This document shows, piece by piece, positions 9,351 through 14,627 of a DNA stretch of 30,792 nucleotides. The stretch comes from Acidimicrobiaceae bacterium. Lineage in GTDB: Bacteria > Actinomycetota > Acidimicrobiia > Acidimicrobiales > Ilumatobacteraceae. How positions within the stretch are numbered: the stretch's first letter is position 1; every line of letters begins with the position of its first letter. A program made the translations under genes and the position numbers. Location of the stretch: NCBI GenBank assembly GCA_947458565.1, contig CANGZK010000001.1, positions 1 through 30,792 on the forward strand, given 5' to 3'. The notes under the pieces are model-generated. The model saw only the letters and a program-made list of their open reading frames with translations. It was not told the origin of the DNA and searched no databases.

Positions 9351-10796
9351 GTGGCAATACTTCGCCAGAACAAACAGAAGACTAAACGACCAAGAGTTGT
9401 AGTCGTTGGTGCGGGTTCTGCTGGAGCCGTAATCGCCGCGCGTTTATCGCAGAACCAAGATGTTGATGTGCTGTTGCTGGAATCTGGACCAGAGATCGCG
9501 GTTGCGCTCGAGGCGAGTGGGACACGGAGCGCAAATTTCGTCGAAGCCCTAGAAGTCGAGAATCGAAACTTGCGCATCCCTGTACGTCGCGCTGCTAGTC
9601 AGGACATCAGTGAGTATGTGCGAGGCACGGGAACGGGTGGAAGCTCATCGGTCAATGCGATGGTTGGCATGTGGGGGATGGCGAGTGACTACGACAGGTG
9701 GGAGCGTGACTTGGGTTGCGACGGATGGTCGTGGCGAGATGTTGCACCTGTATTTGCAAACCTGCCGATACCACTACGCACCACGCTGTCGAGTGAGTGG
9801 GGGAATGTTGACCGTGCTCTCGTGGATGCTGCAACTGAATTGGGATTTGAAAGGCGTGACGATTTAAGTACGGCTCCACTCGCGGGTCATGGGGTTGGTG
9901 CAGTGTCGCTCACGATTAATGATGGTCGGCGTGCTTCGGTTAACGCCGTGTATCTCGAACCAGCGAGATCGAGGTTCAACTTGGAGATTCGTGGAAACTC
10001 GGCAGTTGACAGACTGAATATGAGTGGAAATGATGTAGTGGGAGTTCGCTTGGCAGATGGCAGCGACATTGATGCCGATGCTGTGGTGGTGTGTGCAGGG
10101 GCAATTGCGACTCCACAGATTTTATTGCGTACCAATATTCAGCGAAGCGGAATTGGGCAAGGTGTTAAAGATCATCCAGCCGTTGCATTTACTCTTGCGT
10201 TGAAAGAGCCGAGCGAGGCGCGCTACGCAATATCTGCGTTACTACGAACTACATCGACGACAACAAGTGAATACGCCGAGAACGACAGCGCCCAGCAAGG
10301 TGATATCCATTTGTTGCCTCTCAATCACACAACTGCACACGACAACATGCACGGAGCAATGTTTGCGGCGGTGATGCGTGTGTACTCAACGGGCAGTATC
10401 ACAGATACAAAGATTGACCTCAACCTGCTGAGCGACGAGCGTGATATGTGTGCGATGACAGAGGCGACGTCAATGCTTGCGACCATGATCGAGAGTCGAT
10501 CATTTACTGGCATCGCTGCCTCTGTGGGTGTTGGACCAACTACCGACAACATGCAGGAATGGTTGAGCGGCAACGTTGGCTCGTATTCGCACATTGGATG
10601 CTCGAGCAAGATGGGTGCTGTCACTGATGAAGATGCGGTTGTAGACACGAGCGGAAAAGTGATCGGATATAACCATGTGTGGGTCTGTGATGCATCAATT
10701 TTCCCCGACCTACCAACCGGCAACACACATCTCCCTGTGGTGATGATGGCTGAACGAATTTCGCAACGAATTAGTGAGAGTCTGAAGACCAATTGA
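9351..10796 (+). CDS. GMC-family flavoprotein oxidoreductase (choline dehydrogenase-like), substrate unknown
   Basis: GAGSAG FAD motif, GTGTGGSSSVNAM, LCAGAIATPQIL-type segment, G.GVKDHP and a C-terminal SH...KMG / DASIFP...GNTHLPVVMMAER. Confidence 0.9.
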   Translation: MAILRQNKQKTKRPRVVVVGAGSAGAVIAARLSQNQDVDVLLLESGPEIAVALEASGTRSANFVEALEVENRNLRIPVRRAASQDISEYVRGTGTGGSSSVNAMVGMWGMASDYDRWERDLGCDGWSWRDVAPVFANLPIPLRTTLSSEWGNVDRALVDAATELGFERRDDLSTAPLAGHGVGAVSLTINDGRRASVNAVYLEPARSRFNLEIRGNSAVDRLNMSGNDVVGVRLADGSDIDADAVVVCAGAIATPQILLRTNIQRSGIGQGVKDHPAVAFTLALKEPSEARYAISALLRTTSTTTSEYAENDSAQQGDIHLLPLNHTTAHDNMHGAMFAAVMRVYSTGSITDTKIDLNLLSDERDMCAMTEATSMLATMIESRSFTGIAASVGVGPTTDNMQEWLSGNVGSYSHIGCSSKMGAVTDEDAVVDTSGKVIGYNHVWVCDASIFPDLPTGNTHLPVVMMAERISQRISESLKTN

Positions 10797-12303
10797 GGCT
10801 GCGTTGCAGAGCGCGACTCCATAATGAATAATCGCTCGCAGTGGTAGCCGTTGGTTGTGGCGTAAATGTGCGATCGAGCTGCCACGACTCGGTGATCGAC
10901 TGCAACGTTGGCCAGATTCCTTCAGCCAAACCTGCCAGGTAGGCGGCACCCAGCGCTGTTGTCTCCAAATCTTTGGGCCGCACTACGGTGACTCCGAGTT
11001 GGTCAGCTTGCATTTGCAGCATCATGTCCATGACTGCCGCACCGCCGTCGACTCGCATGTCGATAAGTGGAACTCCCGTTGCCTTGACCATTGCCAAGAC
11101 AACATCGCGAGTTTGAAACGTCATTGACTGAATGACTGCACGAGCGATATGTGCGCGTGTAGTGCCACGAGTGATGCCGCAGATGATGCCGCGTGCATGT
11201 GGGTCCCACCACGGACTACCAAGACCGGTGAATGCGGGGACAACAACAACTCCGCCACTGTCGGCAACTGAATCGGCAAGAGGTGCAACTTGTGCGGCAT
11301 TGTCAATGATGTTGAGACCATCGCGCAGCCATTGGATTGCACTTCCTGTTACGAAGATCGAACCTTCAAGTGCATAAGTTGGCTTGCCAGATCCAAGATC
11401 CCAGGCAACGGTGGTGAGCATGCCGTCGGTTGGTGGCGGGCACTCCGTACCCACGTTCATGAGAACAAAACTGCCCGTGCCGTATGTGTTTTTACTGCTA
11501 CCGATATCGAAACATGCCTGACCGAACAGCGCCGCTTGTTGATCGCCGGCGATACCCGAGATCGGTATGCCTCCTGGAATAAATATGTCAGCATCGTCGT
11601 CTTTGTTGGCTGAACTTCTGAAACTCTGTGTGACACCGCATCGACCACTGGAGGGAACAACGGTTGGCAGGGAAGCGATCGGCACATCAAATGTGTTGCA
11701 CAACTGCTCACTCCACTGCATGCTGTTGATATCGAACAACATGGTGCGACTTGCATTTGACGGGTCGGTGACAAAAGATTTCGCTCCGGTGAGATTCCAG
11801 ATAATCCACGAGTCGATGGTTCCAACAGCAAGGTCGTTAGTTTGCGGAATCTGGCCGTTCTGGATCATCCATTGCACCTTGGATCCTGAAAAATACGGAT
11901 CCAGTACGAGACCGGTAGTTGCGCGAACAGTTGCGAGTATTGGCTGCAACTCGGCGCACCTATCGGCGGTGCGACGGTCTTGCCAAACGATTGCCCGACC
12001 AAAAGGAACTCCAGTTGTTTTGTCCCATGCCACGATGGTTTCACGTTGGTTGGTAATGCCGATTGTGACGACTTGGGCATTGGGCATGGTCGAGAGATTG
12101 GAAATCACTTCACTCAGTGTCTGGCGAACAGCCTGCATGATTTCAAGTGCGTCGTGTTCGACCCAGCCTGGTTGTGGAAAATACTGAGGAAATTCGCGGT
12201 AGCTCGAAACTGATGTTCGACCATCTGCAAATATGGCGCGTGAACGAACTCCTGTAGTGCCAGCATCAATGGCTACGACAGCGCTCATCTTGTTATTTGC
12301 CAT
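10771..12303 (-). CDS. glpK: Glycerol kinase
   Basis: DAGTTGVRS, GITNQRET, WQDRRT, DPYFSGSK, GDQQAALFGQ, KNTYGTG and YALEGS motifs. Confidence 0.96.
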   Translation of the reverse strand: MANNKMSAVVAIDAGTTGVRSRAIFADGRTSVSSYREFPQYFPQPGWVEHDALEIMQAVRQTLSEVISNLSTMPNAQVVTIGITNQRETIVAWDKTTGVPFGRAIVWQDRRTADRCAELQPILATVRATTGLVLDPYFSGSKVQWMIQNGQIPQTNDLAVGTIDSWIIWNLTGAKSFVTDPSNASRTMLFDINSMQWSEQLCNTFDVPIASLPTVVPSSGRCGVTQSFRSSANKDDDADIFIPGGIPISGIAGDQQAALFGQACFDIGSSKNTYGTGSFVLMNVGTECPPPTDGMLTTVAWDLGSGKPTYALEGSIFVTGSAIQWLRDGLNIIDNAAQVAPLADSVADSGGVVVVPAFTGLGSPWWDPHARGIICGITRGTTRAHIARAVIQSMTFQTRDVVLAMVKATGVPLIDMRVDGGAAVMDMMLQMQADQLGVTVVRPKDLETTALGAAYLAGLAEGIWPTLQSITESWQLDRTFTPQPTATTASDYSLWSRALQRSLNWSSDSH

Positions 12304-12427
12304 TCAACTCGGATTGACGCGATGGATCAATGTCGCGTGGAAACTGATCGGTACGAATACCGCAGGATGAAAGCATTGCCACAATCATCAAGATGATGCC
12401 AAAAGAGAGTTTGGACTTTGATTTCAT
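12293..12427 (-). CDS. Unannotated 44-aa putative lipoprotein MKSKSKLSFGIILMIVAMLSSCGIRTDQFPRDIDPSRQSELNGK
   Basis: Translated by hand. It has a Lys-rich n-region, a hydrophobic h-region and lipobox L-S-S-C22. The ATG overlaps the kinase TGA (ATGA) and the stop overlaps the glpK start by 11 nt, so it fills the whole gap. Confidence 0.78.
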   Translation of the reverse strand: MKSKSKLSFGIILMIVAMLSSCGIRTDQFPRDIDPSRQSELNGK

Positions 12428-13950
12428 GAGATGGTCTCGGTGCTGGAACGTGTAACGGTGGCTGGCTGATCTTGAGTGAAGACATCCAGATCAACAATAA
12501 ATCTTGCTCCACGAATTCCATCCTGCCTATTTTCGGCCCAGATACTTCCTGAGTGAAGCGCAACATGTTCTGCTGCAAGGGCAAGACCGAGTCCGGCGCC
12601 TTCCGACCCAGCACGTTGTCCTGCAGACCCACCTCGCGAAAAGCGTTCAAAGATCTTTTCTTCTTCGCCGTCTATCAAACCACTTCCATCATCTTCAACA
12701 ATCACCCACACGCGCGATTGGGTTGGATCGTCATCGGCAAATTGAATGATGATCTTCGGTTTGCCGCCGCTATGGATGCGCGCATTATCGATCAGGTTGG
12801 CGAATACGCGGGCAAGTCGACGTTTATCGCCTTGCACAAAAATCTGATCTGTTCCTGCGGCGAAGATGACATCGGTGCGAGGAAGTGAACTCACAGCAAT
12901 GGCCTGGCGAACGAATTCAAGTAGTGCGAGAGGTTCATTGATGAGTCGAATAGCACCGGCATCGAAGCGTGAGATCTCAAGCAAGTCTTCAACGAGTCCT
13001 TGAAAGCGAGTGACATCGCCAATGAGCAAGTCGAGGGCAGCCTGCGAACGCTCGGGAAGCTCATCGCGGCGCGAATGCATAACCTGAGCCGATGCTGCAA
13101 GTGTCATGAGTGGCGATCGCAATTCATGACTGACGTCAGATGTAAATCGCGCATCGCGTTCAACTCGAGTTTGCAGAGTTGCAACCATGTCATTGAAGGC
13201 TGTCGCAAGCATTTCTAGATCGCGATCTCGGGTCGTTTCAAGCCTGGTATCAAAACGCCCCTCGGCGATTGCACTAGCTGCTTGGGCTGCTTGTACGAGT
13301 GGGCGAACGGTTCGGCCAGATACAAGGAGTCCGAGGCCAATACCGACTGCAGTAGTGATAGCACCTGAAAGCATAAGGGCAATGAAAACGCTGCGCAATG
13401 CGCTTTGGGTCTCGCGAAGACTTTCAAGTTCGAAATAAAAAGCATCTGCTTTCTCCAGCGGAATACCAACTAGGAGAGCTGCGTTGACACCGTGATCAAT
13501 GATCATGTGCGCGGCCTTAAGGTCTGTGACCACTCGAGTTTTCAGTGCTGTCGGAATATCTGCTTGAGTGAAACCCTTGGATTTGCTTGTCCAAACTCCG
13601 CTGCTGAAGAGCAATCGCTGCGCAGAACCAAACTGTTCGAGCGCTCTAAGCATGTCGTCGGGGTTGACGAGTAGATCATTTTGTACACGCTTGGCGTTGG
13701 CGAATGCTTGATTGATTTCTGCTGTTTCGCGTTGTTGGACAAAGCTGCTACGCGTAAAACCGTAGGTAGTGATGGCCAGCACACCAGAAAGAATCATGGC
13801 TCCAGCACCGAATGAGATAAGGATGCGATGGCGCAAACCAATTCGGCGAGGGAGTAGCGCTCGTACGGTATTGCGGATGACTCGGCGAGCTCGTGTGCGC
13901 CGGTAGCGAGGTGGTCGCGACGGTTGGAGTGGTTGGGATGTGGCGGTCAC
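12424..13950 (-). CDS. Membrane sensor histidine kinase with HAMP domain (MtrB/AfsQ2-like)
   Basis: Two TM segments and a HAMP region; H-box RFTSDVSHELRSPL, N-box NLIDNA, G1 VEDDGSG, F-box IFERFSRG, G2 GAGLGL. The GTG start overlaps the regulator TGA. Confidence 0.95.
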   Translation of the reverse strand: MTATSQPLQPSRPPRYRRTRARRVIRNTVRALLPRRIGLRHRILISFGAGAMILSGVLAITTYGFTRSSFVQQRETAEINQAFANAKRVQNDLLVNPDDMLRALEQFGSAQRLLFSSGVWTSKSKGFTQADIPTALKTRVVTDLKAAHMIIDHGVNAALLVGIPLEKADAFYFELESLRETQSALRSVFIALMLSGAITTAVGIGLGLLVSGRTVRPLVQAAQAASAIAEGRFDTRLETTRDRDLEMLATAFNDMVATLQTRVERDARFTSDVSHELRSPLMTLAASAQVMHSRRDELPERSQAALDLLIGDVTRFQGLVEDLLEISRFDAGAIRLINEPLALLEFVRQAIAVSSLPRTDVIFAAGTDQIFVQGDKRRLARVFANLIDNARIHSGGKPKIIIQFADDDPTQSRVWVIVEDDGSGLIDGEEEKIFERFSRGGSAGQRAGSEGAGLGLALAAEHVALHSGSIWAENRQDGIRGARFIVDLDVFTQDQPATVTRSSTETIS

Positions 13951-14627
13951 GACTGCAAGCGATAGCCAAGACCGCGAACTGTCACAACGTGTGTTGGTTC
14001 TGCAGGATCTACTTCAACTTTCATTCGCAGTCGACGAATGTGAACATCGACCAGTCGTCCATCACCGAAGTACCCGTGACCCCAAACTTTGTCGAGCAAG
14101 ACCTCACGACTAAACACACCATTTGGATCGTGGGCTAATTCGCACAGTAAGCGAAACTCAGTTTTAGTGAGCAGAACATCCTTGCCAGCGAGAGTTACCT
14201 TGCCTTCATCAGGGATGATTTCTAGATTTCCAAACACAAGTTTCGAATGTCCAGGTGCAGATGGACGCACTCGTCTGAGCAGTGCACGAATACGAGCAGA
14301 GAGTTCCTTTGGTGCGAAAGGCTTGGTGAGATAATCGTCCGCACCAGCCTCGAGCCCGGCAACAACATCGTGAGTATCGATACGTGCAGTAACCATGACG
14401 ATGGGAACATCGCTCAATTTCCGAATCGTGCGACACAACTCAAAACCGTCGATACCAGGGAGCATGATGTCAATAAGCACGACATCGGAAGGAGTGCTCT
14501 GAAAAATCGCAATTGCATCTTCGCCGGTCGGAGCCTCATCGACGATCCAGCCTTCGTCCTCGAGGGCAAGTTTGACGGAGGCTCTGATGCGCTCGTCGTC
14601 CTCAACGGTTAAGACACGAATCGCCAT
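13947..14627 (-). CDS. OmpR/PhoB-family response regulator (MtrA/AfsQ1-like)
   Basis: VEDD, phospho-Asp LIDIMLPG, GADDYLTKPF and the winged helix RLVDVHIRRLRMK...TVRGLGY. Confidence 0.96.
   Translation of the reverse strand: MAIRVLTVEDDERIRASVKLALEDEGWIVDEAPTGEDAIAIFQSTPSDVVLIDIMLPGIDGFELCRTIRKLSDVPIVMVTARIDTHDVVAGLEAGADDYLTKPFAPKELSARIRALLRRVRPSAPGHSKLVFGNLEIIPDEGKVTLAGKDVLLTKTEFRLLCELAHDPNGVFSREVLLDKVWGHGYFGDGRLVDVHIRRLRMKVEVDPAEPTHVVTVRGLGYRLQS

Follow-up and report, generated by a model that had tools for sequence, protein, structure and literature searches.

The stretch of DNA analyzed here (the window, 30,792 nucleotides) contains a 44-codon open reading frame (ORF) that is very probably a real, selected micro-lipoprotein gene, present throughout the genus and derived from a GerMN accessory lipoprotein. 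Taking the comparative evidence as a whole, we favor, with moderate confidence, the reading that its product is a selected micro-lipoprotein of GerMN origin that would act on the sensor domain of the histidine kinase encoded immediately upstream.

The gene between the kinase and glpK

Four genes follow one another on the minus strand of the window: a response regulator gene (13947..14627), a histidine kinase gene (12424..13950), the 44-codon ORF taken from the ORF listing (12293..12427, prepeptide plus stop codon), and the glycerol kinase gene glpK (10771..12288; NCBIfam TIGR01311, 600 bits against a cut-off of 590). An earlier note on this DNA had claimed a 44-aa ORF between the kinase and glpK, and it is indeed present at that position. 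The stop of the regulator gene overlaps the start of the kinase gene, and the kinase stop codon TGA (12426-12424) shares the sequence ATGA with the ATG of the ORF (12427-12425), so that the coordinates confirm the overlap described earlier. The second overlap that had been claimed, of 11 nt with glpK, depends on the longest-ORF start for glpK at 12303. Because glpK in relatives begins at a Met that maps to 12288, the start is likely to lie there, 5 nt past the peptide stop, and the overlap is probably unreal.

The first 21 residues of the prepeptide (12365..12427, minus strand) form a predicted signal peptide, with a Lys-rich n-region (three Lys residues), a hydrophobic core, and LSS before the Cys, giving the lipobox LSSC. 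Cys22 (codon at 12362..12364, minus strand) is the predicted lipidation site and would be residue 1 of the mature lipopeptide (12296..12364, minus strand), for which the evidence is codon usage, dN/dS, and a gapless alignment to the N termini of full-length GerMN lipoproteins. The signal peptidase II-type signal had been recognized previously and can be seen in the sequence, and the mature length of 23 residues given at that time agrees with the position of the Cys. The core of the mature peptide in the window reads C-G-I-x-x-D-x-x-P-R-D-I-D-P-x-x-Q-x-x-L. Bacterial lipoprotein signals follow a PROSITE PS51257-type rule, which calls for a positive n-region, a hydrophobic h-region, and [LVI][ASTVI][GAS]C with the Cys at 15-35. 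The window peptide passes this rule, as do 17 of 22 genus members, the remaining five being near misses. The 44-aa product had no match in Pfam or NCBIfam, the GerMN family PF10646 included.

The source of the window is a metagenome-assembled genome (MAG) of 1.14 Mb, 60% complete and in 157 contigs. Genome sizes in its genus are about 1.5-2.1 Mb, compared with 2.4-6 Mb in most of the family. We scanned the GTDB species genomes for the peptide motif with a degenerate-codon pattern. The matches came solely from lake, river, and estuary MAGs, labelled Ilumatobacteraceae, Acidimicrobium sp., or acIV, and the organism is therefore a streamlined freshwater member of the Acidimicrobiia (acIV). All 20 matches were of the short form (lake MAGs), and glpK was the next gene in 18.

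Using the kinase as a query in 24 same-genus genomes, next in the family, and then in the order, we read the sequence that follows each orthologue. A small ORF lay directly after the kinase and before glpK at all 24 readable same-genus loci, where kinase identity ranged from 58 to 94%; the set includes one 100%-complete genome in 2 contigs. With in-frame conservation at every readable locus in the genus, the conservation of the 44-aa ORF is far above chance. One genome that had been a candidate for lacking the system (G008) was rejected as such, its kinase having been lost in a contig break with the peptide at the contig end. No claim is based on two genomes flagged as unpublished (G128 and G160). 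Across the genus, the mature part varies from 23 to 35 residues around the core CG[IV]xxDxxPRDIDPxxQxxL, the ATGA overlap with the kinase stop occurs in 14 of 22 members, and the distance from the ORF stop to the glpK start is 5-37 nt among relatives. The conservation of Cys22, on which the earlier note had made its reading depend, is complete: the residue is invariant in 23 of 23 genus sequences and in all full-length homologues.

A word-indexed search of 5.8 billion proteins matched only two unnamed 44-aa clusters. These clusters are the ORF itself, as called by some gene callers.

Short contigs of the locus occur in two metatranscriptomes, although they are few and DNA carry-over is possible. 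One of 151 nt, with 98% identity, runs from the end of the kinase gene 64 nt into the ORF and is compatible with co-transcription of the two.

Origin from GerMN lipoproteins and the proposed partner of the peptide

The earlier note had proposed a search downstream of orthologous kinases, and this search proved productive. The gene after the orthologous kinase encodes a single-GerMN lipoprotein in 25 further genera of the family, at kinase identities of about 50-56%, and also in 8 other families of the order, at 38-46%. These full-length lipoproteins have 172-215 mature residues. A few readings in the full-length set were longer or frame disturbed. Eight of the proteins (seven orthologues and one paralogue, on contig C90) were scanned with PF10646 and scored 28-79 bits against a cut-off of 23; six of the orthologues scored 54-79 bits, and the seventh, a distant order-level protein (L036), scored 28.

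The mature N termini of the full-length proteins align with the peptide without gaps, with the Cys, Asp6, Pro9, and Arg10 invariant and a consensus of CGIxxDxxPRDI. The likeness to a CGxxTDxxPRxI tether of GerMN lipoproteins, which the earlier note had put forward, is thus borne out by PF10646-positive orthologues. With canonical LpqB proteins, the likeness was loose. Three LpqB N termini shared just the Cys, a hydrophobic-Pro pair, and sometimes the Asp, which is too little for us to derive the motif from canonical LpqB. The single-GerMN lipoproteins of Ilumatobacteraceae and Acidimicrobiales resemble the peptide in position, signal peptide, lipobox, and first 12 mature residues but differ from it in having a linker and a 110-residue domain and in the poor conservation of residues 13-21. 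Beyond about 20 residues, the full-length forms run into a low-complexity linker and then the GerMN domain, and it is there that the peptides end. Because the peptide and the full-length N terminus share both position and motif, we read the 44-aa ORF as the signal peptide and conserved N-terminal module of a GerMN lipoprotein from which the linker and the domain have been deleted. In a kinase tree, the window's genus forms one clade (100/99) within the family, and the truncation is therefore older than the radiation of the genus.

The kinase is MtrB-like, with HAMP, HisKA, and HATPase_c domains in Pfam, and the regulator belongs to the OmpR family and is MtrA/CseB-like. The earlier note had described the pair as an MtrAB-like two-component system. 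This description holds insofar as MtrB (NF040691) and MtrA (NF040689) were the best NCBIfam matches; it does not extend to membership in those families, since both scores fall below the equivalog cut-offs (217 bits versus 450 for MtrB and 253.6 versus 300 for MtrA, with CseB at 241). Hydrophobic segments and an AlphaFold2 (AF2) model place an extracytoplasmic sensor domain of 126 residues at residues ~62-187 of the kinase (13390..13767, minus strand), flanked by hydrophobic segments at ~43-61 and 188-206 that are predicted transmembrane helices. The domain was modeled with a pLDDT of 90-96, and its predicted order of secondary structure, H-H-E-E-H-E-E-E, resembles that of PDC-type sensor domains.

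The genome of the window also encodes a paralogous kinase, with an NCBIfam MtrB score (214.6 bits) about equal to that of the window kinase. It is kept in the genus, is 35-38% identical, and has a gene for a 205-aa GerMN lipoprotein directly behind it; in the window's MAG, this kinase and lipoprotein are split across contigs C20 and C90. The paralogous lipoprotein has an N-terminal segment of its own, which is divergent. The gene order of regulator, kinase, and lipoprotein is conserved at the levels of genus, family, and order.

Two small-genome genera, g34 and g37, share the order of regulator, kinase, and glpK with the window's genus, with which they group in the kinase tree (99/96). Neither has the peptide at this orthologous locus, and in place of the sensor domain their kinases have a loop of 25-32 residues. 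At the loci that we read, a sensor domain was always accompanied by a lipoprotein or peptide, and the converse also held; at one locus (L051), kinase and lipoprotein lie in one open frame. This pattern fits the idea that the sensor domain and the lipoprotein N terminus form a functional unit. The free kinase tree nests g34 with the window's genus, which would suggest two independent co-losses. We dropped this scenario, since a single loss is allowed by the AU test: g34 and g37 as one clade were not rejected (P = 0.60), so that the joint loss of peptide and sensor domain may have been a single event.

We propose that a deletion in the ancestor of the freshwater genus removed the linker and the GerMN domain from the accessory lipoprotein and left exactly the conserved N-terminal motif. 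Translation of the ORF would be coupled to the stop of the kinase gene. For the prepeptide, we predict export, attachment of lipid to Cys22 by Lgt, and removal of the signal sequence by signal peptidase II. The resulting 23-residue lipopeptide would sit on the outside of the cytoplasmic membrane, where its motif may engage the sensor domain that the cognate, MtrB-like kinase has close to the membrane. In this way, the lipopeptide could still set or modulate the signalling state of the kinase, and whatever the GerMN domain bound would have been given up. The homology, the truncation, its spread through the genus, protein-level selection, and the presence of the maturation enzymes are shown by the data, and lipidation, contact with the kinase, and the sign of the effect are inferred. 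Of the maturation machinery, LspA (PF01252) is encoded in the window's MAG and in 4 relatives, and Lgt (PF01790) is encoded in 3 near-complete genus members; Lgt was not found in the 60%-complete MAG of the window. The comparisons suggest that the first ~20 residues of the GerMN lipoproteins can act on their own, probably on the kinase.

Could the lipopeptide be functional and yet have a partner other than the cognate kinase? When the natural kinase-X-peptide reading was modeled by AF2 with an alignment of kinase rows only, no docking on the kinase was seen, but the peptide had a pLDDT of 33-47, which is too low to speak for or against contact. For a full-length orthologue, the AF2 model had a mean pLDDT of 89, with 77 for residues 1-10, 69 for residues 11-20, which formed a short helix, and less than 50 for the linker. 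The value for residues 1-10 is compatible with packing on the GerMN domain, and the motif may pack on its own domain in this way in the full-length proteins; because of this hint, motif conservation in those proteins need not reflect contact with the kinase. With the paralogous kinase and its 205-aa GerMN lipoprotein retained in the genus, the partner might be the GerMN domain of that lipoprotein, acting in trans, or some other envelope component. We consider a different partner unlikely, if still worth weighing, since the peptide is linked to the window kinase by its place in the gene order and by the ATGA overlap, it is missing exactly where the orthologous kinase has lost the sensor domain, and the paralogous lipoprotein has a divergent N-terminal segment of its own. 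The cognate kinase is the partner that we prefer.

Selection on the peptide

To describe selection on the ORF, we compiled codon statistics from 23 distinct genus sequences. The invariant residues C1, D6, P9, and P14 use all of their synonymous codons: Cys22 (C1) is encoded by TGT in 10 sequences and TGC in 13, and Pro9 is encoded by CCC in 6, CCT in 7, CCG in 5, and CCA in 5. Four codons each were found for Pro14, Leu20, and Arg10, and both codons were found for Asp6 as for the Cys. Column entropies at codon positions 1, 2, and 3 were 0.82, 0.60, and 1.53 bits. Between subclades, pS was about 0.8 (saturated) versus a pN of 0.29-0.35, and in six phylogenetically independent close pairs, pS was 0.66, pN was 0.084, and dN/dS was about 0.06. 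The signal peptides diverge widely in sequence and retain the charge, the hydrophobic core, and the lipobox. Given saturated synonymous change, invariant residues, and preserved signal features, selection acts at the protein level, and conservation at the level of DNA or RNA can, to judge from these codons, be ruled out.

The same data bear on the idea that the product is irrelevant and that only the act of translation matters, whether by coupling ribosomes from the kinase to glpK or by tuning glpK. The position of the ORF fits such a role: it fills the space from the kinase stop to the glpK start, overlapping the former in ATGA and ending 5-37 nt before the latter. We nevertheless regard this explanation as improbable: C, D, P, R, P, and L are invariant through saturated synonymous change, the signal peptide and lipobox are kept, and g34 and g37 have glpK straight after the kinase without any ORF. 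Even less probable is that the ORF is a functionless, decaying relic, open by chance or for a short time. A deletion in a streamlined genome could have left such a remnant, and the sister genera have lost the ORF entirely; against this, the frame has stayed open in at least 30 species, with kinases up to 42% different, nonsynonymous change lags far behind saturated synonymous change, and the diversity of codons excludes the recent transfer of one allele. Purifying selection of this strength upholds the preference of the earlier note for a functional gene over a truncated relic. That note had also named a private deletion or an assembly artefact as the finding that would overturn it, and a 60%-complete MAG in 157 contigs might raise this concern (as might binning), but we give it almost no credence, since the short form is genus-wide and the arrangement recurs in dozens of MAGs that were assembled independently and come from different lakes, among them one in 2 contigs that is 100% complete.

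We also compared short and full-length forms at matched kinase divergence (cytoplasmic parts 70-80% identical). Over mature residues 1-12, conservation was similar, with an identity of 0.60 in the short forms versus 0.55 in the full-length forms. Residues 13-21 had an identity of 0.55 in the peptides versus 0.16 in the full-length proteins, the pairs in these comparisons not being independent. The tail of the peptide has thus come under tighter constraint since the domain was lost. A bolder proposal, which we put forward only tentatively and with more doubt than belief, is that the ~20 residues next to the lipobox are an autonomous, sufficient kinase-docking module of GerMN/LpqB-type lipoproteins, with the tail newly constrained after the loss of the domain. 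If this were true, the peptide would be a lipopeptide of 23 residues that serves by itself as a cofactor of a histidine kinase, which would be a regulator class undescribed so far.

Significance and comparison with known systems

Ever since the three-component system was proposed, it has been an open question how lipoproteins of the LpqB type pass signals to MtrB-type kinases. A natural deletion series is found in the family of the window's genus: a kinase with a full GerMN lipoprotein, a kinase with 23 residues, and a kinase with neither sensor domain nor peptide. This series singles out a short, easily synthesized motif of about 20 residues as a candidate for the element through which lipoproteins of this class signal, and would turn a vague "modulator" into a concrete hypothesis about a peptide and a domain. 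It also shows that, where the genomes of abundant lake bacterioplankton are streamlined, an accessory protein of a signalling system can be reduced to a lipopeptide instead of being deleted. Genes this short escape gene callers with length cut-offs. Our search of the literature found no description of such a reduced peptide or of LpqB-like proteins in Acidimicrobiia.

Small membrane proteins that modulate a histidine kinase are known from PhoQ, which has MgrB and SafA as modulators. Like these, the window peptide is a membrane product of fewer than 50 residues that is proposed to act on a kinase, at its periplasmic or membrane portion. MgrB and SafA differ from it in being transmembrane proteins rather than lipoproteins, in their unrelated sequences, in usually being regulated by the system itself, and in not being derived from a larger accessory protein.

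Lipoproteins that serve as a third component and contact the extracytoplasmic domain of the kinase include CseA in the CseA-CseBC system and NlpE in NlpE-CpxA. Likewise, in QseG-QseE, an accessory lipoprotein is the third component and touches the extracytoplasmic domain of the kinase (PMC12691602). In contrast to the window peptide, QseG, CseA, and NlpE are folded proteins of more than 130 residues. None of them is known to have been reduced to a lipopeptide.

The named neighbors of the peptide in a protein language model were colicin lysis proteins and Rz1 (scores of 0.87-0.91), which we treat as a lead only. Entericidins are further examples of very small bacterial lipoproteins. All of these resemble the peptide in size and signal-peptide features but have no sequence homology to it, have functions of a lytic or toxin type, have no link to a kinase, and come from other phyla.

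The nearest described system is MtrAB-LpqB, known as a three-component system in Actinobacteria (Hoskisson and Hutchings 2006 and Nguyen et al. 2010, as cited in PMC12818412). The gene behind mtrB in Actinobacteria encodes LpqB, a lipoprotein that combines GerMN with GMAD1, and a domain analysis from 2008 guessed that its GMAD1 propeller mediates the contact with the kinase (PMC2732212). LpqB is considered a likely extracytoplasmic or periplasmic modulator of MtrB, by a mechanism still called unknown in 2026 (PMC12818412). The two systems are alike in the order of regulator, kinase, and lipoprotein, in the translational linkage of the lipoprotein to the kinase, and in the GerMN domain, which occurs in LpqB and in the full-length relatives of the peptide. 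They differ in that LpqB has about 580 aa, comprising GerMN and the GMAD1 propeller, whereas the window system keeps 23 residues alone. A search for GMAD1 (PF10647) detected it in the control, Corynebacterium glutamicum, but neither in the window's genome nor in 5 family members with near-complete genomes. Because both NCBIfam scores are below their cut-offs, GMAD1 was not found, and the N termini of LpqB are only loosely alike, we assign neither the peptide to LpqB nor the system to MtrAB. The window system would instead be of the same three-component type, with its third part reduced to a lipopeptide.

Boundaries of glpK

The longest ORF of glpK begins at window position 12303, a start that adds five residues (MANNK) absent from relatives. 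Comparison with these relatives instead identified the Met at window position 12288 as the conserved glpK start, which makes an overlap with the 44-codon micro-lipoprotein gene (12293..12427, minus strand) improbable. The 11-nt overlap claimed in the earlier note rested on the 12303 start and is probably absent. At its 3' end, glpK is convergent with a plus-strand gene for a GMC-family oxidoreductase (9351-10796), and the 3' ends of these two ORFs overlap by 26 nt (window positions 10771-10796).

The kinase locus across the family

The glpK gene also lies 467 nt 3' of the lipoprotein gene at L060, a locus from one genus that has the full-length lipoprotein. Given this proximity, the kinase-glpK neighborhood may be older than the truncation of the lipoprotein. 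The deletion that gave rise to the micro-lipoprotein gene may have taken out only the GerMN domain plus a spacer.

The orthologous kinases of genera g37 and g34 (L079:547-1743, L081:75-1283, and L088) are about 400 aa long and have a 25- to 32-residue loop in place of the 126-residue sensor domain. Here, glpK follows the kinase directly, with neither a lipoprotein nor a peptide between them. The genomes carrying these sensor-less kinases are 1.5 to 1.7 Mb.

A family-wide search at an E value of ≤1e-80 found no match to the kinase in genera g19, g24, g27, and g72. These are small-genome genera of the family (1.5 to 2.4 Mb, >90% complete), and the entire system may have been lost in them.

At L051:1444-3720, a locus from one member of the family, no stop separates the kinase from the full-length GerMN lipoprotein, and both are read in a single open frame of 759 codons. 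A natural fusion, loss of the stop, or a misassembly could each account for this joint frame.

A second, paralogous system

The window's own MAG is also home to a second, paralogous regulator/kinase/lipoprotein system. Contig C20 carries the regulator and the kinase (L003:593-2871), the regulator being divergently transcribed and the kinase truncated by the contig end. A 205-aa GerMN lipoprotein is encoded at the beginning of contig C90 (L001:7-624). Since the paralogous kinase and lipoprotein genes are neighbors in complete relatives, C20 and C90 probably abut.
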